DNA from: an uncultured Candidatus Saccharibacteria bacterium
GTDB taxonomy: Bacteria; Patescibacteriota; Saccharimonadia; Saccharimonadales; AWTP1-31
Assembly: GCA_964643545.1 (NCBI GenBank)
Contig: CAZXTE010000002.1
Location: forward strand, 18,587-82,586
Direction: 5' to 3'
Length of the DNA stretch: 64,000 bases
In this document: piece after piece, positions 3,045 to 61,022 of the stretch
Position numbering within the stretch: the stretch's first letter is position 1
How the letters are laid out: each line of letters begins with the position of its first letter
The notes under the pieces: generated by a model
What the model was told of the DNA's origin: nothing
Seen by the model: only the letters and a program-made list of their open reading frames with translations
The model's database searches: none
Position numbers and translations under genes: made by a program

Positions 3045-5932
3045 TGAAGTTTAAATCAGGAACCCGAAGACGAGCATTAGAGTACGAAAAGGACCTTGTT
3101 GCTCAGTGGAAAAAGAACAAAACGTTTGAGAAGTCTGTCGAACAACGACCCAAAGAGAACGCATATGTATTTTATGATGGTCCGCCGTTTATTACGGGGG
3201 TGCCACATCATGGCACATTGCTTACCTCGATTGTTAAAGATGCTGTGCCGCGCTATCACACTATGAAGGGTAGGCGTGTTGAGCGTGTTTGGGGTTGGGA
3301 TACGCACGGGCTGCCAGCAGAAGTTTACACCGAGAAAAAGTTTGGTATCACCGATAGACGCGACATAGGTACAAAGATTAGCCTGGAAAAATACATAACG
3401 ACATGTCGCGAAAATATGATCTCAACGGGTTCCTTATGGGAAGATACGATTGATCGAATTGGTCGTTGGGTGGACTTTAAGGGTGCCTACAAGACCATGG
3501 ACAAAGAGTATATGGAAAGTGTCTGGTGGGCGTTTAAGAAGCTCTTTGAAAAAGGGAAGATTTACGAGGGAGAGCGTGTGCTGATGTATTGCACACGTGA
3601 TGCGACACCAATTAGTAAAGCCGAAGTCGCCATGGATAATAGCTACCAGGATGTCACCGATCCAAGTGTGTATGTGAAGTTTAAGCTTGCCCAGGAAGAC
3701 TCGTATCTGCTGGCCTGGACGACGACACCATGGACGTTGCCATCCAATAGCGCAATTGCAGTCAACAAAAACATTGAATACGTAGAGGTCGAGTTCCAAA
3801 ATCAGAATCTTATCATGGCAAAACGTTTGCTGGATAAGGCACTGTCTAACGACAAACACGAGGTCTTACCGTATAAGGTTCTGAGGACCTTTAAGGGCAA
3901 AGAGCTGGTAGGTAAGGCATATGAGCCAATCTTTGATACATATAAGGACATAGGGAAGAATGCGTTTAAGGTGTGGCATGCTGATTTTGTACATGATGAA
4001 GAAGGGACCGGTATTGCTCATGAGTCGCCGGCCTATGGAGAGGAAGATTACCAGCTCAGCAAAGAGGCTGGGTTCCCTTGGGTGATGAGCACTGATGAAA
4101 ACGGTATATACACCGATGGAGAATGGAAAGGTCGGCTTGTGTGGGACGTAAATAAGGAGATTGCCAAGACGCTGCAAGAGCGCGGAGTTGTATTCCGTAT
4201 CGAGTATATCCGCCATAGCTACCCACACTGTCATCGTTGTGGTACGAAACTTATGTATCGTGCGCACCCCAGTTGGTTTATGGATATTGATGGCCAACGC
4301 CAAGAGATGCTGGAGCAAAATAGCCAGATCAACTGGTTCCCGGATCATATTAAACACGGCCGATCTGAAAAGACGATTCAATCTGCGCCAGACTGGAATC
4401 TGAGCCGTGATAGATTTTGGGCAACCGCTATGCCTGTCTGGAAGAGTGACAGTGGCAAGACAAAGGTGATTGGTAGCTATGCAGAGCTGAAAGAACTTAG
4501 TGGCGTTGAGCTCGACGATTACCACCGCCCTTGGATTGATGACGTAAAGTTTAGTATTGATGGCGAAGAATATACACGAATCGAAAAAGTCATGGATTGT
4601 TGGTTTGAGAGTGGTAGCATGCCATTTGCACAGTTCCACTATCCGTTTGAGAACGTGGAGAAGTTTGAGCAAAACTTCCCCGGAGATTTTATCGTCGAGT
4701 ATGTTCCGCAAGTGCGTGCCTGGTTTTACTATATGCAGGCCGTGAGCGTGGGGTTATTTAATACTGCGGCGTTTAAGAATGCATTGGTGCATGGCACATT
4801 GGCCGGTAATGATGGCCGCAAGATGAGCAAGAGTTTTGGTAATTATACAGACCCCAATGTACTAATGGATCAATACAGTGCTGACAGCCTGAGACTACTA
4901 TTTCTTGGCTCGCCACTCTTAAATGGTGAAGATTTTTCTCTTCAAGACAAAGATGTTAGCGATGTGGCTCGTAAGCTGACTATGGTCTGGAATATGTATG
5001 ACTTCTTTACCATGTATGCAGAAGTCGATGGATGGGAGTGGGACGGGAAGCACGAGGACCCTGCCGAGTTTTGTAAGAACCCACTTGATACATGGATTGT
5101 TAGCCGTGTGCACCAGCTAACCCAAGAGATAGAGAAGCACATGGACATCTATGACATCCCGAATGCCGTAAAGCCAATTTTGCCGTTTATCGATGATGCA
5201 TCAAACTGGTATGTCCGCCGCAGTCGCCGTCGCTTCTGGAAAAGTGGTGATGATGAAGATAAAAACAATGCTTACCGAACGCTTCTCTACGTTTTAGTGC
5301 AGCTTAGCATGGTGCTGGCGCCATTCACGCCCTTTCTGGCCGAAGAGCTGTACCAGAAGTTAACTGGCGGTGAATCGGTGCACCTCCTCGACTGGCCAAG
5401 CGTTGGGCACATCGATGAGCTTTCATTAAAGAACATGGAGCTCGTTCGTTATGTGGTAACGGGTGCATTGTCAGAAAGAGCAAAGGCGGGCATTAAGGTG
5501 CGGCAGCCCCTTGCAAAAATCAAGGTGACTACAGCACATCAAGAACTCCAGGAATACATGGTCGATATCATAAAAGAAGAGGTGAACGTAAAAGAGGTTG
5601 GGCACGACATAAACCCAACGCATGATGATGTCGCGTTTCTACTTGATACGACAATCTCACCAGAACTAAAGCGCGAGGGACAGATGCGAGAGGTTATCCG
5701 ACAGGTTCAGAATGCCCGCAAAAACGCTGAGTTACAGGTGGATGATCGGATCGCGCTCAACCTTTATACAGGCAGCTCAGAGCTTGCAAGAGCCATAGAT
5801 GAGCACAAGGCTACAATCGCATCCGAAACGTTAGCTAAAAGCCTGAAGAGCGATCAAAAAGCTATTCTGAGCCACAAGACGACCGTTAAAATTGATGGCG
5901 CTGAATTAATGATTGAGCTCCAAAAAGCGTAG
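3044..5932 (+). CDS. ileS: Isoleucyl-tRNA synthetase (type 2-like)
   Basis: 962 aa. Class I signatures are PPFITGVPHHGT (HIGH region) and KMSKSFGN (KMSKS). The overall layout is that of IleRS. Confidence 0.93.
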   Translation: MKFKSGTRRRALEYEKDLVAQWKKNKTFEKSVEQRPKENAYVFYDGPPFITGVPHHGTLLTSIVKDAVPRYHTMKGRRVERVWGWDTHGLPAEVYTEKKFGITDRRDIGTKISLEKYITTCRENMISTGSLWEDTIDRIGRWVDFKGAYKTMDKEYMESVWWAFKKLFEKGKIYEGERVLMYCTRDATPISKAEVAMDNSYQDVTDPSVYVKFKLAQEDSYLLAWTTTPWTLPSNSAIAVNKNIEYVEVEFQNQNLIMAKRLLDKALSNDKHEVLPYKVLRTFKGKELVGKAYEPIFDTYKDIGKNAFKVWHADFVHDEEGTGIAHESPAYGEEDYQLSKEAGFPWVMSTDENGIYTDGEWKGRLVWDVNKEIAKTLQERGVVFRIEYIRHSYPHCHRCGTKLMYRAHPSWFMDIDGQRQEMLEQNSQINWFPDHIKHGRSEKTIQSAPDWNLSRDRFWATAMPVWKSDSGKTKVIGSYAELKELSGVELDDYHRPWIDDVKFSIDGEEYTRIEKVMDCWFESGSMPFAQFHYPFENVEKFEQNFPGDFIVEYVPQVRAWFYYMQAVSVGLFNTAAFKNALVHGTLAGNDGRKMSKSFGNYTDPNVLMDQYSADSLRLLFLGSPLLNGEDFSLQDKDVSDVARKLTMVWNMYDFFTMYAEVDGWEWDGKHEDPAEFCKNPLDTWIVSRVHQLTQEIEKHMDIYDIPNAVKPILPFIDDASNWYVRRSRRRFWKSGDDEDKNNAYRTLLYVLVQLSMVLAPFTPFLAEELYQKLTGGESVHLLDWPSVGHIDELSLKNMELVRYVVTGALSERAKAGIKVRQPLAKIKVTTAHQELQEYMVDIIKEEVNVKEVGHDINPTHDDVAFLLDTTISPELKREGQMREVIRQVQNARKNAELQVDDRIALNLYTGSSELARAIDEHKATIASETLAKSLKSDQKAILSHKTTVKIDGAELMIELQKA

Positions 5933-5978
5933 ATGTCTCTTTACAGGGGCGGGCTAATCTGTTAAGATCTCTTGGTAT

Positions 5979-6284
5979 ATGAAAAAAGCAGTCATAACAA
6001 CCGGTGGAAAGCAATATATCGTACACGAAGGCGAAACGCTGGAAATTGAGCTATTGGAAGAAAAGAAAAACCATACCTTTAAGCCATTGCTTGTCATCGA
6101 CGACAAAGACGTAAAAGTTGGCACACCTTACGTAGAGTCAGCTTCTGTCACGGCCACAACCGTTGATCAGGAAGTAAAAGCAGACAAAGTATTAGCCATT
6201 CGCTATAAGCCAAAGAAACGTGTCCATAAAATTCGCGGTCATCGACAACGACACACACTTATTCAGATTACCAAAATTTCTTAA
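5979..6284 (+). CDS. rplU: Ribosomal protein L21
   Basis: AVITTGGKQYIVHEGETLEIE ... RYKPKKRVHKIRGHRQRHT matches L21. Confidence 0.95.
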   Translation: MKKAVITTGGKQYIVHEGETLEIELLEEKKNHTFKPLLVIDDKDVKVGTPYVESASVTATTVDQEVKADKVLAIRYKPKKRVHKIRGHRQRHTLIQITKIS

Positions 6285-6435
6285 ACGAACGCGTCGCACA
6301 ATGCGAGAAATAGTGTCGTAACTATTAACTAGCCGTATAATACTAGCCGAGTAGTGCTTGCTGATTTTTGTCGTGTTTTTTTCGTCCCATCTGTGGTAGG
6401 CTTATGGTTATAGAGGACAGAGGCAAAAAATAGAA

Positions 6436-7200
6436 ATGGGAACGACGATAGCGGTGCTAAACCAGAAAGGTGGCGTGGGGAAGACGACCACTGCTATTAA
6501 TTTGGGTGCTTACCTTGCAAAACGGAATAAGCAAGTATTGTTAGTCGACCTTGACCCGCAAGGTAATGCAACGAGCGGCTTAGGCATTGATAAGCAAAAG
6601 CTTGAGACGACGATGTATGATGTACTGTTTGGTAATGTCGCCGTCGAGCAGGCCAGCAAAGATACGGCCATACCTGGGCTACGAATAGCAGCTACAAACC
6701 AGCAGCTTGCTGCTGCAGAGATTGATCTCGCAGCTGAAGATAAGCGGGAGTTTAAACTAAAAACAGCCCTTGGCCCCCTTGTGTATGACTATATTTTGAT
6801 TGACTGTCCACCCTCGCTCGGCCTACTGACAATAAATGCGTTAACCGCTGCAGACAGAGTCCTTATTCCGGTGCAGGCAGAGTATTATGCGCTCGAGGGC
6901 CTGAGCCAGTTGCTTAGCGTTATCCAACGGGTACGAGAGAGTCTTAACCAACAGCTCGAACTGCTTGGGGTGGTTGTTACGATGTACGACGGCAGAACCT
7001 CGTTAAGCGAACAAGTTTTAGACGAGGTACGAAAACATTTTGGCACCAAACTCATGAATACTGTTGTGCCACGAAATATACGATTAGCAGAGGCGCCAAG
7101 CTACGGAAAGTCAATCATGGAGCATGATAAGTGGTCCAAAGGCGCCAGAAGTTACAAGAATCTAGCAAAGGAGGTGATGGATCGTGTCAGCGCGAAATAA
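6436..7200 (+). CDS. parA: Chromosome partitioning ATPase ParA/Soj
   Basis: Deviant Walker A NQKGGVGKTTTAINL. The sequence is ParA-like throughout. Confidence 0.9.
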   Translation: MGTTIAVLNQKGGVGKTTTAINLGAYLAKRNKQVLLVDLDPQGNATSGLGIDKQKLETTMYDVLFGNVAVEQASKDTAIPGLRIAATNQQLAAAEIDLAAEDKREFKLKTALGPLVYDYILIDCPPSLGLLTINALTAADRVLIPVQAEYYALEGLSQLLSVIQRVRESLNQQLELLGVVVTMYDGRTSLSEQVLDEVRKHFGTKLMNTVVPRNIRLAEAPSYGKSIMEHDKWSKGARSYKNLAKEVMDRVSAK

Positions 7201-19945: not shown

Positions 19946-19997
19946 CGATACGCGTTATACATAAAAAGATTCACACAATTACGCTATACTGTACGAG

Positions 19998-21137
19998 ATG
20001 TCTATTATGCTTTTACTCCTGGGCCTCCTGTTGTTTGTCTTCCTTGTCGTGGCACACGAATTTGGCCACTATATAGCGGCTCGGCGTGGTGGGGTAGAAG
20101 TTGAAGAGTTTGGTATTGGTTTTCCGCCTCGTGCCTGGTCAAAGCGGCTCAAAAATAAAACGCTCCTGACGTTAAATTGGTTGCCGCTGGGGGGCTTCGT
20201 AAAGCTGAAGGGCGAGCACGATGCCGACACGACTAAGGGTAGCTTTGGCGCGGCATCGTTAGGAAGAAAAGTTAAGATTATGCTTGCTGGTGTTGGCATG
20301 AATCTCGCTGTCGCTTTCTTTTTGCTCACTGTCCTTGCTGTAGTTGGGATGCCGCGGCTTATAGAGAATCAGTTTACCGTTGCAAGTGATACCAAGATTG
20401 CCAAGAACGATGTTTTAGTGGGGTATATCGAACCAAACTCACCCGCACAACAGGCAGGGCTTCGCACTAAAGACCAACTCGTTAGTGTCGACAGGTATCT
20501 TGATAATGCAGCAGCAGAAACAACAAGGATAGGGTCTGCTGATCAGCTCGTTGGTCGAACCAAGAGCCTTGCCGGCCAGAAGGTACAGCTGACCATAAGG
20601 CGTGCGGATCAGACGCTGGTAAAAACCCTGTCCTTGCGCTCCCAATCAGAAGTAGAAGCAAGCAAGAAAACAGCAGAGCCAAAAGGATATTTGGGCGTTT
20701 CCCCAACCGAGCTTACGTTGCAGCGGTCGACGTGGTCTGCTCCAATCGTAGCGTCGGGACTGATCAAACAGTTCACCGCGGCAACATTTAAGGGTTTATG
20801 GCAGGCTATTTCTGGATTGGCACAAGGCAATGGCAGTAAGGCAAGTGCACAGGTATCGGGGCCTGTCGGTGTATTTGTACTATTGAAAGATGGCAGTTTG
20901 CTTGGCTATCAATTTGTACTGGTTATCATCGCCATTATCTCACTCACCCTGGCTATTATGAATGTATTGCCAATCCCGGCTCTCGATGGCGGTAGATTAT
21001 TTGTGACATTACTGTATAGGATACGTAATAAACCCCTAACCCAGAAAATAGAGGATCGGATCCATGGGACCGGTTTTGCAGTATTGATGCTGCTGTTTGT
21101 TCTGATAACTATTGTAGACGTACGGCGGTTTTGGTAA
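19998..21137 (+). CDS. rseP: Site-2 protease, RseP/M50 family zinc metalloprotease with PDZ
   Basis: HEFGHYIAARRGG (HExxH), a central PDZ-like segment, and LPIPALDGG near the C-terminus. Confidence 0.85.
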   Translation: MSIMLLLLGLLLFVFLVVAHEFGHYIAARRGGVEVEEFGIGFPPRAWSKRLKNKTLLTLNWLPLGGFVKLKGEHDADTTKGSFGAASLGRKVKIMLAGVGMNLAVAFFLLTVLAVVGMPRLIENQFTVASDTKIAKNDVLVGYIEPNSPAQQAGLRTKDQLVSVDRYLDNAAAETTRIGSADQLVGRTKSLAGQKVQLTIRRADQTLVKTLSLRSQSEVEASKKTAEPKGYLGVSPTELTLQRSTWSAPIVASGLIKQFTAATFKGLWQAISGLAQGNGSKASAQVSGPVGVFVLLKDGSLLGYQFVLVIIAIISLTLAIMNVLPIPALDGGRLFVTLLYRIRNKPLTQKIEDRIHGTGFAVLMLLFVLITIVDVRRFW

Positions 21138-21973
21138 TGGCAGCTCTTCTGTGGGCTCCGGTATTCTTGCTGGCTGTATACGGTCTTGTTAGTTTTTTCT
21201 ACTGGCCACACAAAAAACAGGCCGAAAAGGGCAAAATAAATTGGACGGGTTGGGATGCGGTTGGGATAGCTGTTTTCTTGTATTTCGCAGGCCAGCTCAT
21301 TGGTGCAATTCTGGCAAACGTGTTGCCGCTATTGTTGGGTTGGGGTAACGAACGAACACTGAAGTGGATCGATACGAATCCCGTTGGTCAGTTTTTGCTC
21401 ATATTCTTTATTGAGTGCATTACCGTTTATCTATTGTATGTGTTCTTAAAACGACGAAAGTCAGGTTTTGGGGCAATTGGACTACGTGGCAAGCCAAAAG
21501 CGAGAGAAATCCTTTATGTGTTAACTGGCTTTGCGGTCTACTTCTTATTGTATGTTGTGCTGGTAACGCTAACCAAGCATTTTATCCCGGCTTTGGACAC
21601 CGAACAGCAACAACAGATAGGCTTTGATAATGCGCAAAATACAGCATTAATCCCTGTGTTTTTGAGCTTGGTAGTGCTGCCCCCGATTGCCGAGGAACTA
21701 CTAGTTCGTGGGTTTTTATATAGTGGGCTGCGAAAAGCGCTACCTAAGATATGGGCAATTGTGCTAACGAGCGGGTTGTTTGCTGTCGCTCACTTACAGG
21801 CGGGGAGCGGCGAGAAGCTTCTTTGGGTGGCGGCAATTGATACATTTGCGCTCTCTGTGGTGTTGATTCACTTACGAGAAAAAACAGGTGCACTGTGGGC
21901 GCCCATGGGGCTCCATGCACTTAAGAACACAATCGCGTTCCTTGCCATTTTCGTCTTTCATGTTGCAAGATAA
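21137..21973 (+). CDS. CPBP family intramembrane glutamic endopeptidase (CAAX protease-like)
   Basis: EELLVRGFLY and FAVAHL motifs in a polytopic protein. ATG 21137 overlaps the rseP stop (TAATG). Confidence 0.8.
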   Translation: MAALLWAPVFLLAVYGLVSFFYWPHKKQAEKGKINWTGWDAVGIAVFLYFAGQLIGAILANVLPLLLGWGNERTLKWIDTNPVGQFLLIFFIECITVYLLYVFLKRRKSGFGAIGLRGKPKAREILYVLTGFAVYFLLYVVLVTLTKHFIPALDTEQQQQIGFDNAQNTALIPVFLSLVVLPPIAEELLVRGFLYSGLRKALPKIWAIVLTSGLFAVAHLQAGSGEKLLWVAAIDTFALSVVLIHLREKTGALWAPMGLHALKNTIAFLAIFVFHVAR

Positions 21974-21990
21974 AGTAAATATGATAAAAT
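21963..21990 (+). promoter_or_regulatory. Promoter driving a leaderless 22-codon ORF upstream of proB
   Basis: TTGCAA 21963-21968, 16 nt, TGaTAAAAT (-10 at 21985-21990), then 6 nt to ATG 21997. Confidence 0.5.
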
Positions 21991-21996
21991 AAGTTT

Positions 21997-22065
21997 ATGA
22001 AAGTGCTTTTAGCTTCTGGATTTGTTACCCCCACAGCCCCCGTTTGTCACCGGAGGCTTTGTTAG
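21997..22065 (+). CDS. Candidate leader peptide MKVLLASGFVTPTAPVCHRRLC (proB-proS attenuator)
   Basis: Leaderless layout identical to bona fide genes in this window. Two CCC Pro codons lie between RNA segments that can form alternative structures (see findings). Confidence 0.4.
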   Translation: MKVLLASGFVTPTAPVCHRRLC

Positions 22066-22085
22066 ATATACGATAATTTAGTAGC

Positions 22086-22111
22086 AAAAAGCGGCCTCCG
22101 GGCCGATTTTT
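22086..22111 (+). terminator. Intrinsic terminator / attenuator hairpin upstream of proB
   Basis: AAAAAG CGGCC TCCG GGCCG A TTTTT. The 5-bp GC stem (22092-22096 with 22101-22105) is extendable by A:T pairs and is followed by a T-tract. Confidence 0.5.
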
Positions 22112-22144
22112 AATAATTGAAGCTACAACAGAAAGAATGATGAA

Positions 22145-22912
22145 ATGAGAAATAATGGACTAGTAGTTAAATATGGCTCAGAGGCCGCGACAAATGATCG
22201 CGGCATGGACGTTGACCGCGTTGAAGGTTACGTGGCAGATCTTTGTGCCGAACGCAGACAATCTGGATTAATTGTTGTCAGTTCGGGCGCGGTTGCAGTG
22301 GGGGAGTGCCTGTGGCGAGACTTGCATGGAGAAGAAGAGCTGCCAGGTAAGCAAGCATTGGCAATGTTGGGAAGTGCCGAAGCTACACTTGTGTGGCAGC
22401 GTGCCTTTGCAAAACACGGTGTGTCGGCAGGCCAGCTTTTATTAACACATAGAGAGATTGATGACGGTAAAGAAGGCCCCGTTTTGAAACGCGCAATCAA
22501 GGCTTGCTTGAAGGCGGGCATTGTTCCTGTGGTTAACGAGAACGATCCAGTCAGCACAAAAGAACTCGCCAAACTTGCCTATGGCGGCGATAATGACGGC
22601 CTAGCATCGCACATTGCTATAGATATGAAAGCTAGAACGCTGATAATTTTCACCCAAAAGGGCGGCCTATTTGATAGCCGAGGTAGAGAGCAATCAACCT
22701 TAACCTCGACTCACTTTGATAGTGCACGCGATATGGTTGCAGACAGAGAGTCGAAACGGCGCAAGGGTAAAGGTACTGGAGGTATGACAACCAAGTTGGA
22801 TGCGGCTATTGATGCCGCCGAAGCAGGGGTAGATACGTATATCGCCCGGGCGGGTACGTCTGTACGCGAGGTTCTGGAAGGACAAATGGGCACAAGACTT
22901 ATCGCCAAATAG
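22145..22912 (+). CDS. proB: Glutamate 5-kinase (kinase domain only, no PUA domain)
   Basis: VVKYGS, SSGAVAVG, VPVVNENDPV, GDNDGLAS and GTGGMTTKLDAA line up with ProB motifs. Confidence 0.85.
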   Translation: MRNNGLVVKYGSEAATNDRGMDVDRVEGYVADLCAERRQSGLIVVSSGAVAVGECLWRDLHGEEELPGKQALAMLGSAEATLVWQRAFAKHGVSAGQLLLTHREIDDGKEGPVLKRAIKACLKAGIVPVVNENDPVSTKELAKLAYGGDNDGLASHIAIDMKARTLIIFTQKGGLFDSRGREQSTLTSTHFDSARDMVADRESKRRKGKGTGGMTTKLDAAIDAAEAGVDTYIARAGTSVREVLEGQMGTRLIAK

Positions 22913-22949
22913 CGCACACTCCGGTAAGATGGTACAAGGAGAAAACGCC

Positions 22950-24197
22950 ATGAGAATGTCCAAACTATTCACCAAGACCAGTAAAACCATTCCTGCTGAT
23001 GAGACAGCGAAGAACGCCCAACTACTCATTCAGGCCGGTTACATCCATAAGGAAATGGCGGGCGTGTATGTATATCTACCCCTTGGCAAGAAAGTGCTGG
23101 ATAATATCGCCCAAATTGTTCGTGAAGAAATGGACAACATCGGTGGTCAAGAGGTGCAACTGAGTGTGTTGCAGCCGAAAGATATATGGGAAAAAACCGA
23201 CCGCTGGGACGACAAGAAAGTCGATAACTGGTTTAAGACGAAGCTGGTTAACGGCACTGAGCTCGGTGTTGGCCTAACGCATGAGGAGCCCCTAGTAGAT
23301 GCACTAAGGAGCTACGTAACGTCTTATAAAGACTTCCCAATCTATGCCTATCAGATCCAAAACAAGTTTCGAAATGAACTAAGAGCCAAGAGTGGTTTGC
23401 TGCGCGGTCGCGAGTTTGTCATGAAAGACATGTATAGCATGGCACGAGACCAGGCAGAGCATGCACAGTTGTACGAAGAGGTTGCCGCAGCGTACAACAA
23501 GGTCTATGATCGGCTCGGGCTTGGCAAAATCACCTATAGAACCTACGCAGATGGTGGCATATTTACCGATAAATTTAGTGATGAATTCCAAACACTGAGC
23601 GACATTGGCGAAGACACGATCTTTGTAGACGAGGCTAAAAGGATTGCAGTAAACAAAGAAGTATATACCGACGAAAACCTTAAAAAACTTGGTATCTCGA
23701 AGGGTGATTTGGTGGAAAGGCGTGGTGTAGAGGTCGGAAACATCTTTCCGCTCGAATCAAAATACACCGACGCACTCGACGTGTACTATACCGACGAGAA
23801 TGGCAAAAAGCAGTCAATTATCATGGGGTGTTATGGTATTGGCATCAGTCGTTTGGTTGGTGTTATTGCAGAGCATTTTTCCGACGAAGACGGGCTGATT
23901 TGGCCAGAAAATATTGCGCCATTTCGGGTCTACCTGGTGCAGATAGGTGAAGCTGCAGCCAAAGAAGCTCGGGATATCTATGACGAGCTGAAAGCACAGG
24001 GCGTTACTGTGCTCTGGGATGATCGAGATATACGGCCAGGGCAGAAATTTGCAGACGCGGATCTCATGGGCATCCCATGTCGCGTTGTGATCAGCGAGAA
24101 GACGATTGCCGGCGGGCAATACGAAATTAAAAAGAGAACAGAGAAAGAATCGAACCTCGTCAGCAAACAAGAATTACTAAAAATCCTGGCGACGTAA
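22950..24197 (+). CDS. proS: Prolyl-tRNA synthetase, short form lacking the INS editing domain
   Basis: Class II motifs are present (FRNELRAKSGLLRGREFVMKDMYS; GCYGIGISRLVG) with an anticodon-binding C-terminus. AAGGAG lies 8 nt before ATG 22950. Only about 40 aa separate motifs 2 and 3. Confidence 0.9.
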   Translation: MRMSKLFTKTSKTIPADETAKNAQLLIQAGYIHKEMAGVYVYLPLGKKVLDNIAQIVREEMDNIGGQEVQLSVLQPKDIWEKTDRWDDKKVDNWFKTKLVNGTELGVGLTHEEPLVDALRSYVTSYKDFPIYAYQIQNKFRNELRAKSGLLRGREFVMKDMYSMARDQAEHAQLYEEVAAAYNKVYDRLGLGKITYRTYADGGIFTDKFSDEFQTLSDIGEDTIFVDEAKRIAVNKEVYTDENLKKLGISKGDLVERRGVEVGNIFPLESKYTDALDVYYTDENGKKQSIIMGCYGIGISRLVGVIAEHFSDEDGLIWPENIAPFRVYLVQIGEAAAKEARDIYDELKAQGVTVLWDDRDIRPGQKFADADLMGIPCRVVISEKTIAGGQYEIKKRTEKESNLVSKQELLKILAT

Positions 24198-24764: not shown

Positions 24765-26300
24765 ATGCAATGGCTCAACCAATTAGTTGATGAGATTACT
24801 CTTCGATTTCCTGAGGGCGATATTTTGATTGAGTCCGGTGCCTCGCCATCAGGTACGTATCACTTTGGTCACTTACGCGAAATTATCACCTCTGACGCAA
24901 TTATGCTCGAGCTCAAAAGCCGGGGACGCCAGGCACGTCACATTCAGTTTGTCGACGATCTCGACGGGCTTCGTAAAATACCGGTTAATATTCCAGCAGA
25001 TTTTGAACAGTACCTTGGTATGCCATTATGCGATATTCCAGCACCCGATGGGAGCAAGCGTAGCTTCGCAGATTATTTTGTCGACGATTTTATTGATGTT
25101 GCACAAGAGCTTGGTATAGAAATGGGCGTTGAGCGTAGTCATAAAAAATATCGCAGCGGTTTCTTTGCGCCGGCCATAGAGAGAGTATTGGCCAGTGTGC
25201 CAGCTGCGCGACAGACAATCGAATCTGTTGCAGGCCGCCAACTTGATGAGCACTGGTCGCCAATTCAAATTATGGAGTCTGGGCGATTAAAGAATCGTCG
25301 GTTCATTTCCATCGATGAAAATGCAAAAGAAGTTGTGTATGAATCACAAAACGGGGATGAACAGAGAGCAAGTTATGCATCTGGGCTTGTCAAACTAGAC
25401 TGGCGCTTAGATTGGCCAGCCCGGTGGTGGTTACTCAAGGTGCAGGTTGAACCTTTTGGTCGCGATCACGCCACAAAAGGCGGCTCATACGATACGGGGT
25501 TGGGCTTGATGGACAAAGTGTTCGATGCACCGGCACCAATACCAGTACCGTACGACTTTATTAATCGTGCTGGCGATACAAAGAAAATGAGTGCGAGTAA
25601 GGGGACCGGCATTGAAGCCAAAGAAGTGGTTCAGGTTCTGCCTGCAGAGCTTGTGCGGTACTTTGTTCTGGCTTATCCACCAAGCAAAAGACTGTATTTT
25701 GATCAAAGCGTGGGCGTCATGCGACTATTCGATGAGTTTGCTGCGTTATTGGCAAAACCCAACAGAACAGCACAGGAAGAGCAGCTGTTGAGGCTCTGCC
25801 GGGGACCGTTGGGGGATCGGATAGTTGTTAGTCAAATCCCATTTTCGCACGTTGTTGCAAGCTACCAGTCGGCGTTACGCAACCCTGAGAGGACGCTAGA
25901 TATCCTTAGTCGAACTGAGTATGGCGACAAGATCGAAGCGAATAAAGATGTACTAATGCATGAACTCACATTTATCGGTAAGTGGCTCGATAAATGGGCA
26001 CCAGATGAAGTTAAATTTGATCTGCTGGAAGATCTATCAAAGATAACGTTGACCGCGCAGCAGAAAGACTTTCTGTGCAAACTTGGTGAGTGTGTTGCAA
26101 AAGCTCCTGAAAATGCCGACGGCGCGTGGTTCCATCAAGCAATTTATGAATTAAAAGACTCGAGCGATTTAAGTCCCAAGGACTTATTCAGTACCCTCTA
26201 CCAAACGCTTATTGGTAAAGACTCAGGCCCACGTGCTGGCTGGTTCCTTAGCATTCTGCCTCGAGAATGGCTTATTAACAGACTTGCACTCAAGGCGTAG
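24765..26300 (+). CDS. lysK: Lysyl-tRNA synthetase, class I
   Basis: SGASPSGTYHFGHLREI (HIGH-like) and KMSASKGTG (KMSKS), about 510 aa, typical of class I LysRS. Confidence 0.85.
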   Translation: MQWLNQLVDEITLRFPEGDILIESGASPSGTYHFGHLREIITSDAIMLELKSRGRQARHIQFVDDLDGLRKIPVNIPADFEQYLGMPLCDIPAPDGSKRSFADYFVDDFIDVAQELGIEMGVERSHKKYRSGFFAPAIERVLASVPAARQTIESVAGRQLDEHWSPIQIMESGRLKNRRFISIDENAKEVVYESQNGDEQRASYASGLVKLDWRLDWPARWWLLKVQVEPFGRDHATKGGSYDTGLGLMDKVFDAPAPIPVPYDFINRAGDTKKMSASKGTGIEAKEVVQVLPAELVRYFVLAYPPSKRLYFDQSVGVMRLFDEFAALLAKPNRTAQEEQLLRLCRGPLGDRIVVSQIPFSHVVASYQSALRNPERTLDILSRTEYGDKIEANKDVLMHELTFIGKWLDKWAPDEVKFDLLEDLSKITLTAQQKDFLCKLGECVAKAPENADGAWFHQAIYELKDSSDLSPKDLFSTLYQTLIGKDSGPRAGWFLSILPREWLINRLALKA

Positions 26301-26342
26301 ATTTAGCGAGAGCCAAGCGACGAACTGCTATACTGTATAAAC

Positions 26343-37731: not shown

Positions 37732-37757
37732 GTGGCTAAGATTGCTATACTGTAGGT

Positions 37758-38849: not shown

Positions 38850-38888
38850 GTTCGAAAGCACAAGCGTTGTTTGCTATAATGGTGGGAC

Positions 38889-60986: not shown

Positions 60987-61015
60987 TTGACAATAACGCT
61001 AATGTTTGCTATAGT
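60987..61015 (+). promoter_or_regulatory. Consensus-like promoter of leaderless ORF 61023
   Basis: TTGACA 60987-60992, 17 nt, TGcTATAGT (-10 at 61010-61015), then 7 nt to the ATG. Confidence 0.6.
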
Positions 61016-61022
61016 GTGAAGC

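Follow-up and report, generated by a model that had tools for sequence, protein, structure and literature searches.

How might a Candidatus Saccharibacteria cell match the expression of its prolyl-tRNA synthetase to its supply of charged tRNA-Pro? The question is raised by a 64-kb stretch of contig CAZXTE010000002.1 (the window, meaning the whole stretch that was analysed), in which a gene for a glutamate 5-kinase-like (G5K-like) amino-acid kinase and the prolyl-tRNA synthetase gene proS follow, across a short gap, a gene for a CPBP intramembrane protease. A sequence-only reading of the gap had proposed a leader-peptide attenuator there, with a promoter, a short open reading frame (ORF) holding Pro codons, and RNA segments able to pair either as an antiterminator (segments 2 and 3) or as a terminator (segments 3 and 4). 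Our analysis favours this view: with a probability of about 0.78, the sequence comparison and the folding models point to a ribosome-mediated transcription attenuator that would couple the kinase and proS to charged tRNA-Pro. The attenuator is supported because its architecture is conserved between lineages whose kinases are 41-48% identical as proteins, because the 2:3 pairing co-varies, because CCN triplets are biased to the reading frame, and because folding under ribosome masks reproduces the switch.

From these elements we infer the following scheme. An extended -10 promoter would start transcription at ~21997, and the resulting leaderless mRNA would begin directly with the ATG of a 22-codon ORF. 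In the naked RNA, the Pro-codon stretch (22035-42) would pair with segment 2 (22050-58), leaving segment 3 free to form the terminator (22092-22105 and a run of five U). When Pro-tRNA is plentiful, the ribosome would reach the stop codon and cover segment 2, the terminator would form, and transcription would end at ~22111. When Pro-tRNA is scarce, the ribosome would stall with Pro12 (22030-32) in its A site, so that segment 1 would be melted and segment 2 exposed. Segment 2 would then pair with segment 3 once this is made, no terminator would form, and the polymerase would read into the kinase and proS.

The pieces of this scheme lie in the window where the sequence-only reading had placed them (Table 1): the promoter hexamers with their spacing and the ATG, the ORF with its stop and its two CCC codons, and the CGGCC/GGCCG hairpin followed by A and T5. 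A pattern scan also returned the promoter, with TG upstream of its -10 hexamer, and this promoter overlaps the last codons and the stop of the CPBP gene. The three segments named in that reading, GCTTCTGG (22012-19), CCGGAGGC (22050-57) and GCCTCCGG (22094-22101), are present, and the pairings given for them are arithmetically correct. The antiterminator duplex (22050-58 with 22093-22101) has eight Watson-Crick pairs and a G-U pair at -17.7 kcal/mol, and the terminator hairpin alone has -9.7 kcal/mol. The z-score of the leader's minimum free energy (MFE) was -1.55 in single-sequence folding, which is not significant, and the scan for promoter-like sites found 11 for 9.7 expected from shuffles. 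No Rfam model matched the 64-kb window at the gathering threshold, and nothing relevant was returned for 21850-22250 at E up to 10; the T-box covariance model had no match in either search. Taken alone, the window sequence does not give evidence above chance; it exceeds chance only through comparison.

This result on the single sequence is in keeping with a rival view, in which the hairpin is a mere terminator of the rseP-CPBP unit, the kinase and proS have a downstream promoter of their own, and chance accounts for the short ORF and for the complementarities. The terminator would certainly end CPBP transcripts too: it would close the rseP-CPBP unit because the leader, as untranslated internal RNA of that transcript, folds into the terminator form. 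The terminator has A5 on its upstream side and U5 on its downstream side (22087-22111), and the scan called a terminator on the minus strand as well; the genes around it are all on the plus strand, and the A5/U5 symmetry has no evident use.

The nearest genome was a Candidatus Saccharibacteria metagenome-assembled genome with a kinase 96% identical to that of the window; its five contigs (L001-L005) are mutually identical in the gap and were taken as one sequence. It was the sole match when genome contigs were scanned with the single kinase protein, and the next kinase homologues were 35-48% identical. A metagenome scan with a kinase profile returned mostly distant proB genes of other phyla, the useful loci being L006 and L007. 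The region is masked by Ns in L098, which was left out. Leaders were found in eight lineages besides the window (L086, L087, L097, L100, L006, L092/93, L096 and L099), and counts over nine leaders refer to these and the window. The first four, the window and its 96% relative make up what we call class A (six sequences).

The eight other Saccharibacteria lineages carry the same three-part kit in the gap between the CPBP and kinase genes. The comparison that the sequence-only reading had put forward as a check found the short Pro-codon ORF and the 2:3 and 3:4 pairings conserved. The first part is a -10 hexamer whose end precedes an ATG by 6-8 nt and which is extended in most cases (TGnTAnAnT); in L086, L087, L097 and L100, the CPBP gene likewise has TTG[CT]AA together with TGnTAnAnT at its end. 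The second is an ORF of 15-18 codons, with no Pro among codons 1-10 and with three or four Pro codons from codon 11 or 12 onwards, clustered in its last five to seven codons. The predicted peptides are MIIQSKMLFLTPPTPV, MQSKISITLSPPYPI, MRTQIKNVLLYPPVPV, MKNLMFIQLTPPAPM, MSLAELVLFVVPTPPPGV, MASRLYFATDLPLPPR, MRYQRTFSVLPIPRPF and MSLAQKVYWNVPKPPARA. They end, directly before the stop, in TPPTPV, SPPYPI, YPPVPV, TPPAPM, VPTPPPGV, LPLPPR, LPIPRPF or VPKPPARA, and the Pro cluster is their sole common feature. The third part is a terminator made of a hairpin and a U-run, which precedes the start codon of the kinase by 12-37 nt, and an intrinsic terminator was found in all nine leader-bearing lineages. 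In the relatives, the distance between the G-rich segment and the stop codon never exceeds 6 nt. The stop (TGA or TAA) of the class A relatives is two bases before segment 2; counted from the start of the stop codon, the distance is 5 nt in these relatives and in L096 and 2 nt in L092, and the stop overlaps segment 2 in L006 and L099. The motif CGGCCTCCGGG occurs once in the window and, among the fetched loci, solely before the kinase.

The choice between the 2:3 antiterminator and the 3:4 terminator, as first proposed from the window, was likewise conserved in the relatives. Class A has two strictly conserved blocks, C[CU]GGAGG[CU]UU and [AG]CGGCCUCCGGG[CU][CU]G, and in its antiterminator C[CU]GGAGG[CU] pairs with GCCUCCGG. 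All nine antiterminator pairs and all five terminator pairs are 100% paired in the six sequences. The helices have taken four C-to-U substitutions, each of which turns G-C into G-U and keeps the pairing. RNAalifold, run unguided on class A, predicted the 2:3 helix alone. The weightier argument lies in the lineages outside class A, whose terminators have other sequences. In each, the 5' arm of the lineage's own terminator has its complement in a G-rich segment that adjoins or overlaps the stop codon: GGGGUGU with ACACCCC in L006, GGGCGU with ACGCCC in L092 and L099, and GCCGGGG with CCCCGGC in L096. The complementarity between segment 2 and the terminator thus persists over four or five unrelated terminator sequences, and since the lineages share ancestry, the differing antiterminator sequences are compensatory and not coincidental. 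Between L099 and L006, one antiterminator pair has changed on both sides, from C:G to U:A, and one pair of the terminator stem is U:A in one and C:G in the other of L092 and L099. The leaders outside class A were excluded from the pair counts, as MAFFT mis-aligns their 3' arm. Ranked among all 28-nt windows of its own locus, the duplex of stop region and terminator arm came in the top 0.7-6.6% per locus (empirical p 0.007-0.066), these p-values not being independent because the loci are related.

The first helix had to be revised. The sequence-only reading had paired segment 2 with a segment 1 at 22012-19, and this complementarity exists (-12.8 kcal/mol as a duplex); the helix is absent from the MFE structure and has no counterpart in the relatives. 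A fold holding this segment, GCUUCUGG, together with the terminator reached -22.6 kcal/mol, against -34.4 kcal/mol for the MFE, and we rejected it as segment 1. In the MFE of the window, 22035-38 and 22040-42 pair instead with 22055-58 and 22051-53. A hairpin between the Pro codons and segment 2 is part of the MFE of the window, L086, L087, L097, L100, L006, L092 and L099, in varying register. According to these predicted folds, segment 1 would be the Pro-codon stretch itself, which would follow the logic of trp, with the regulatory codons inside segment 1.

We then considered how a ribosome would shift these folds. Each leader was folded with its terminator stem as the 3' limit, and positions -15 to +12 around the A-site codon were forced unpaired. 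The free RNA of the window had a terminator probability of 0.80. Under a Pro12 stall mask the antiterminator took over (P(antiterminator) 1.00, P(terminator) 0.00), and with the ribosome at the stop codon P(terminator) was 0.80. The caution in the sequence-only reading that a stall at the second Pro codon may mask segment 2 was well placed, as the Pro15 mask left P(terminator) at 0.80 and P(antiterminator) at 0.00. Across class A, P(terminator) of the free RNA was 0.38-0.85, and a stall at the first or second codon of Pro-Pro (in the window and L001, at Pro12 only) gave P(antiterminator) of 0.98-1.00. A stall at the last Pro codon gave a mixed result in the class A relatives. In L096, Pro stalls led to the antiterminator, with P(antiterminator) of 0.98-1.0 for the first Pro codon and an outcome that varied with mask length for the last. 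With the ribosome at the stop codon, P(terminator) was 0.80-1.00 across the leaders folded (0.80-0.98 in class A, 0.98 in L096).

Is the short ORF translated, or is the leader an element of RNA only? Over the nine leaders, CCN triplets fall in frames 0, +1 and +2 in the ratio 27/11/5 (binomial p=7e-5). Because of this bias we argue that the C-rich stretch has a coding role and does not act as RNA only, and codon placement thus implies translation of the leader ORFs. An untranslated ORF within a purely RNA element (a riboswitch-like leader that binds a ligand or a protein, or a small RNA gene ending at the terminator) would fit the fact that the strictly conserved blocks C[CU]GGAGG[CU]UU and [AG]CGGCCUCCGGG are the RNA-pairing ones. 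A ~115-nt attenuated transcript could also persist as a stable small RNA, and in the window itself CCN triplets show no frame bias (2/4/3). Such an element would not account for the bias across the family, for an ATG always 6-8 nt after the -10 hexamer, or for the conservation of the ORF length (15-18 codons) and of the stop position relative to segment 2, when the remaining sequence is not conserved. Moreover, Rfam gives no match, and the segments do not enclose a conserved structured aptamer, the spacer between segments 2 and 3 being A/T-rich and variable (26-47 nt). We consider an RNA-only element very unlikely.

The comparison with the 96% relative bore on the peptide as well. The gap differs from it at 7 of 171 positions (95.9% identity), and third codon positions are 78.5% identical in the CPBP gene and 82.0% in the kinase gene. 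This difference shows that the gap is under constraint. Of its seven changes, five are clustered within 15 nt, at 22024, 22033, 22035, 22036 and 22038 (L001 3880-3894), and the remainder of the leader is almost invariant. Four of these lie between the Pro codons and change ACA GCC to GCG ACA (Thr-Ala to Ala-Thr, hence TPTAPV to TPATPV), and the fifth, upstream, is a synonymous TTT-to-TTC change. The clustered changes are not compensatory in the predicted folds, and they leave the ORF and all helices untouched. A functional micropeptide, with a surrounding structure unrelated to regulation, could be imagined from an ORF that is open in all leader-bearing lineages and from N-terminal halves that are moderately hydrophobic (MKVLLASGFV, MSLAELVLFVV). 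We regard it as extremely unlikely, given that the peptides are unalignable outside the Pro cluster, that even the 96% relative differs by two residues within the motif, and that the C-terminal CHRRLC of the window peptide recurs only in this relative.

This C-terminal extension follows from a lost stop codon. The ancestral stop position, two nt before segment 2 in class A relatives, is TGT in the window, and the ORF therefore runs six codons further, through segment 2, to the TAG at 22063. Segment 2 begins 13 nt before the window stop and so stays within the footprint of a ribosome there, whose 5' half would cover it; the logic of attenuation would thus be kept. The window leader is a derived form and would be the weakest sensor of the set.

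The attenuator and a plain terminator followed by a separate promoter differ in how the kinase and proS would be transcribed. Of the eight other lineages, five (L086, L097, L006, L092 and L099) have only 12-26 nt between the U-run and the kinase start, which has a clear Shine-Dalgarno sequence in the relatives. Since 12-26 nt are too short for a promoter, the kinase and proS of these five would be transcribable only through the terminator. The recurrence of the ORF, of the position of the Pro cluster and of the complementarity between segment 2 and the terminator in eight lineages with different terminators also argues against fortuitous complementarities, as does an intergenic conservation far above that of synonymous sites. 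What speaks for a separate promoter is found in the window. There, the weak promoter-like TTAATA-17-AAGAAT that the sequence-only reading had pointed out is indeed present, 6 nt before the kinase ATG and thus in leaderless layout. The U-run lies 33 nt from this ATG, and the kinase, unlike that of all relatives, has no good Shine-Dalgarno sequence. For these reasons, a weak independent leaderless promoter of the kinase is possible in the window. We judge a plain terminator with a separate promoter to be quite unlikely as an account of the locus.

A further question is what the switch would report. Pro-Pro and Pro-Pro-Pro-Gly motifs depend on EF-P for their translation, and most relatives have such motifs (TPPTPV, SPPYPI, YPPVPV, TPPAPM, PTPPPG, LPLPPR, PKPPA). 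The same switch might therefore report the capacity for polyproline translation, that is, EF-P activity or general elongation stress, and not the supply of proline or Pro-tRNA. The Pro-codon leaders mgtP and mgtL of Salmonella, which answer conditions that lower charged tRNA-Pro, offer a parallel (PMC3641672). We find this reading of the signal unlikely. The window and L096 leaders keep the element without consecutive prolines (TPTAPV, LPIPRPF), and the regulated genes, proS and a glutamate-5-kinase homologue, are those expected to respond to a shortage of Pro-tRNA. The EF-P and Pro-tRNA signals are, in any case, not mutually exclusive.

Several observations weigh against an attenuator that senses Pro-tRNA, among them the spacing, the poor Shine-Dalgarno sequence, the promoter-like site and the even CCN frames just described for the window. 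The evidence base is computational throughout. The window leader has two Pro codons, not adjacent and without a Pro-Pro pair, Pro12 alone switches its fold, and its ORF passes through segment 2. The class A helices show conservation and wobble changes only, without two-sided compensations. Some relatives switch poorly in the folding: early Pro stalls gave a partial switch in L099 and L092 (best P(antiterminator) 0.87 and 0.66, respectively), the first Pro stall in L006 gave a weak equilibrium switch with P(antiterminator) of at most 0.18, and the 1:2 state is not uniformly dominant because the free RNAs of L096 and L100 favour the antiterminator. The leader is absent in L007 (50-nt gap), in L094/95 (31-nt gap) and in L101-105, a distant oral-type lineage with the kinase after another class II synthetase, and it is degenerate in L090. 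As to the regulated genes, the window kinase scored 150.7 bits against TIGR01027 (proB), under the curated equivalog cutoff of 186, and when the 64-kb window, the scope of this search, was queried by tblastn with ProA-like proteins of proBA loci, no proA homologue was found.

Table 1. Features of the leader and its flanking genes (positions in the window).
Feature	Positions	Strand	Remarks
CPBP/Rce1-like intramembrane protease gene	21137..21973	+	stop 21971-73; last gene of the rseP-CPBP unit
Leader promoter (predicted)	21963..21990	+	-35 TTGCAA 21963-68, 16-nt spacer, extended -10 TGaTAAAAT 21982-90; -10 hexamer 21985-21990, then 6 nt to ATG 21997
Leaderless leader-peptide ORF (putative)	21997..22065	+	22 codons and TAG 22063-65; MKVLLASGFVTPTAPVCHRRLC
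Pro codon 12 (CCC), candidate sensing codon	22030..22032	+	from ribosome-mask folding; first Pro is codon 11-12 in every leader
Candidate segment 1 (anti-antiterminator), C-rich around second Pro codon	22035..22042	+	pairs with 22051-22058 in MFE and co-transcriptional folds
Pro codon 15 (CCC)	22039..22041	+	with a ribosome stalled at this codon, segment 2 is masked at its 5' end (ribosome-mask folding)
Segment 2, CCGGAGGCU	22050..22058	+	pairs with segment 1 or 3; C[CU]GGAGG[CU]U in class A
Intrinsic terminator CGGCC-UCCG-GGCCG	22092..22111	+	stem-loop 22092-22105, A, U5 22107-22111
Segment 3, GGCCUCCGG, terminator 5' arm and loop	22093..22101	+	antiterminator partner of segment 2; invariant in the six class A sequences
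Predicted regulated gene 1: glutamate 5-kinase-like (G5K-like) amino-acid kinase	22145..22912	+	255 aa, PF00696, without PUA domain
Predicted regulated gene 2: prolyl-tRNA synthetase (proS)	22929..24197	+	TIGR00409 418 bits, cutoff 306.7

L090 (2850-3000) shares the synteny. Its ORF is leaderless and 12 codons long, and codon 11 is the only one for Pro (MRELHRASDLPA); a GCCUG-ACUG-CAGGC hairpin spans the stop codon. The terminator is a different one (CUCCU...AGGAG-U5), and an antiterminator is not obvious. Its leader is probably a decayed copy, possibly a decayed or rewired attenuator.

The leaderless start of the leader ORF, which the sequence-only reading had also ascribed to real genes in the window, is in character for this genome, because the same layout opens ~20 of the 59 long ORFs of the window: TANNNT, mostly as TGcTATAnT, 5-9 nt before ATG and without a Shine-Dalgarno sequence. 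Examples of such sites are 19980-19997, 26325-26342, 37740-37757, 38871-38888 and 61005-61022. Shine-Dalgarno-like motifs were found in 14 of the 59. Leaderless mRNAs thus seem, from these layouts, to be a major class in this genome. A scan of the leaderless-layout short ORFs in the window's intergenic gaps found no other leader with an amino-acid run.

The proposed mechanism is a known one, classical leader-peptide attenuation; the host phylum, the amino acid and the leaderless leader peptide are what is notable. As a type of system, the element is to be likened to trpL, hisL, leuL, thrL, ilvL, pheL and pheM of Proteobacteria and to their predicted counterparts in Actinobacteria (PMC1262725). 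It shares with these a short ORF with cognate codons in what would be segment 1, mutually exclusive 2:3 and 3:4 helices together with a predicted 1:2 helix, a terminator just before the first structural gene, and a stop codon that lets the terminating ribosome cover segment 2; as in the classical pheST case, the operon encodes an aminoacyl-tRNA synthetase. Unlike these, it would sense proline in a Saccharibacterium (Patescibacteria, candidate phyla radiation or CPR), from a leaderless mRNA and not from a Shine-Dalgarno site, with 2-4 regulatory codons, no sequence or Rfam-model similarity, and an operon of a G5K-like kinase and proS.

Other systems share parts of this design. In Salmonella, mgtP has 17 codons with three consecutive Pro codons, and stalling at the Pro codons of mgtL (mgtA) and mgtP (mgtCBR) at low charged tRNA-Pro refolds the RNA and raises downstream transcription (PMC3641672). 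These leaders differ in controlling Mg2+ transporter and virulence genes, in being led by Shine-Dalgarno sequences and in being long multi-signal leaders that also sense Mg2+ or ATP; they have no homology with the element described here. The leaderless polycysteine short ORFs of mycobacteria (the Cys 'ribulon') are similar in being the first cistron and in having clustered cognate codons at which stalling remodels the RNA; they act on translation, by sequestering the ribosome-binding site (10.1101/834739), whereas the terminator and U-run here would mean transcriptional control, and the amino acid and the phylum are different. The physiological logic is also that of T-boxes, large structured RNAs that have a specifier codon and a T-box bulge and bind the tRNA itself. 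In Firmicutes, T-box leaders stand on proBA, proI and proS, and uncharged tRNA-Pro de-represses these genes through a terminator/antiterminator choice. Unlike a T-box, the leader here is ~110 nt with a predicted translated ORF, and the window holds no T-box match.

A full-text literature search, which did not take in the 2010 attenuator survey of Lopatovskaya et al. (including aminoacyl-tRNA synthetase operons), returned no leader-peptide attenuator, whether for proB or proS or from Patescibacteria. If confirmed, the element would thus be, as far as the searched literature shows, the first cis-regulatory attenuator in Saccharibacteria/CPR, and the first leader-peptide attenuator for a prolyl-tRNA synthetase and a proB-like gene. 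It would give a handle on how ultra-small host-dependent bacteria monitor their amino-acid supply, on how closely the ribosome follows RNA polymerase on leaderless mRNAs (~1/3 of the genes of this genome), and on the link of an orphan G5K-like kinase, always beside proS, to proline. Culture and genetic manipulation are now feasible for some Saccharibacteria (PMC10633639).

We also entertain, as a doubtful extension, a dedicated proline sensor with a leaderless leader peptide in an obligate epibiont almost without amino-acid biosynthesis. It might gauge host-derived proline or polyproline/EF-P capacity and switch on ProRS and the G5K-like kinase, whose role in a proA-less genome may not be proline synthesis. 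On the leaderless mRNAs of Patescibacteria, translation would then be tightly coupled to transcription, and the ~115-nt transcript could perhaps act in trans. The rnTrpL of Sinorhizobium is an attenuated transcript that acts in trans.

The sequence-only reading had named the regulated genes proB and proS. The assignment of proS is secure by its TIGR00409 score; that of the kinase is not, as its score is below the proB cutoff. TIGR01027 proB is nevertheless its top NCBIfam family, and its best solved relatives are all glutamate 5-kinases (E ~1e-28 to 5e-20). 'G5K-like' is therefore the safe name, and the Pro-codon leader is independent evidence placing this kinase in proline metabolism. In the Saccharibacteria loci examined, the kinase gene always adjoins a class II aminoacyl-tRNA synthetase gene and never proA. 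The partner is proS, downstream, in the loci with CPBP synteny, every one of which has proS after the kinase, and a 460-aa class II aminoacyl-tRNA synthetase upstream in L101/L102.

The order rseP, CPBP, gap, kinase, proS, greA is retained in most of the relatives' contigs fetched, and 3' of the gap the window has kinase, proS, greA and a class I lysS. The slot after greA holds a class I lysyl-tRNA synthetase (PF01921) in the window (24765-26300) and in the 96% relative. The syntenic slot of L086 (5679-6792) and L088 (3964-5097) holds a ~505-aa class II enzyme (PF01336 and PF00152), and L087, of the same lineage as L088, has no Pfam match on record there (5650-6783). This looks like a non-orthologous replacement of lysS in place within Saccharibacteria. 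Finally, a mini-ORF of three codons (22137-22148, ATG ATG AAA TGA) ends in an ATGA overlap with the start codon of the window kinase; it may serve termination-reinitiation coupling, or may be due to chance.

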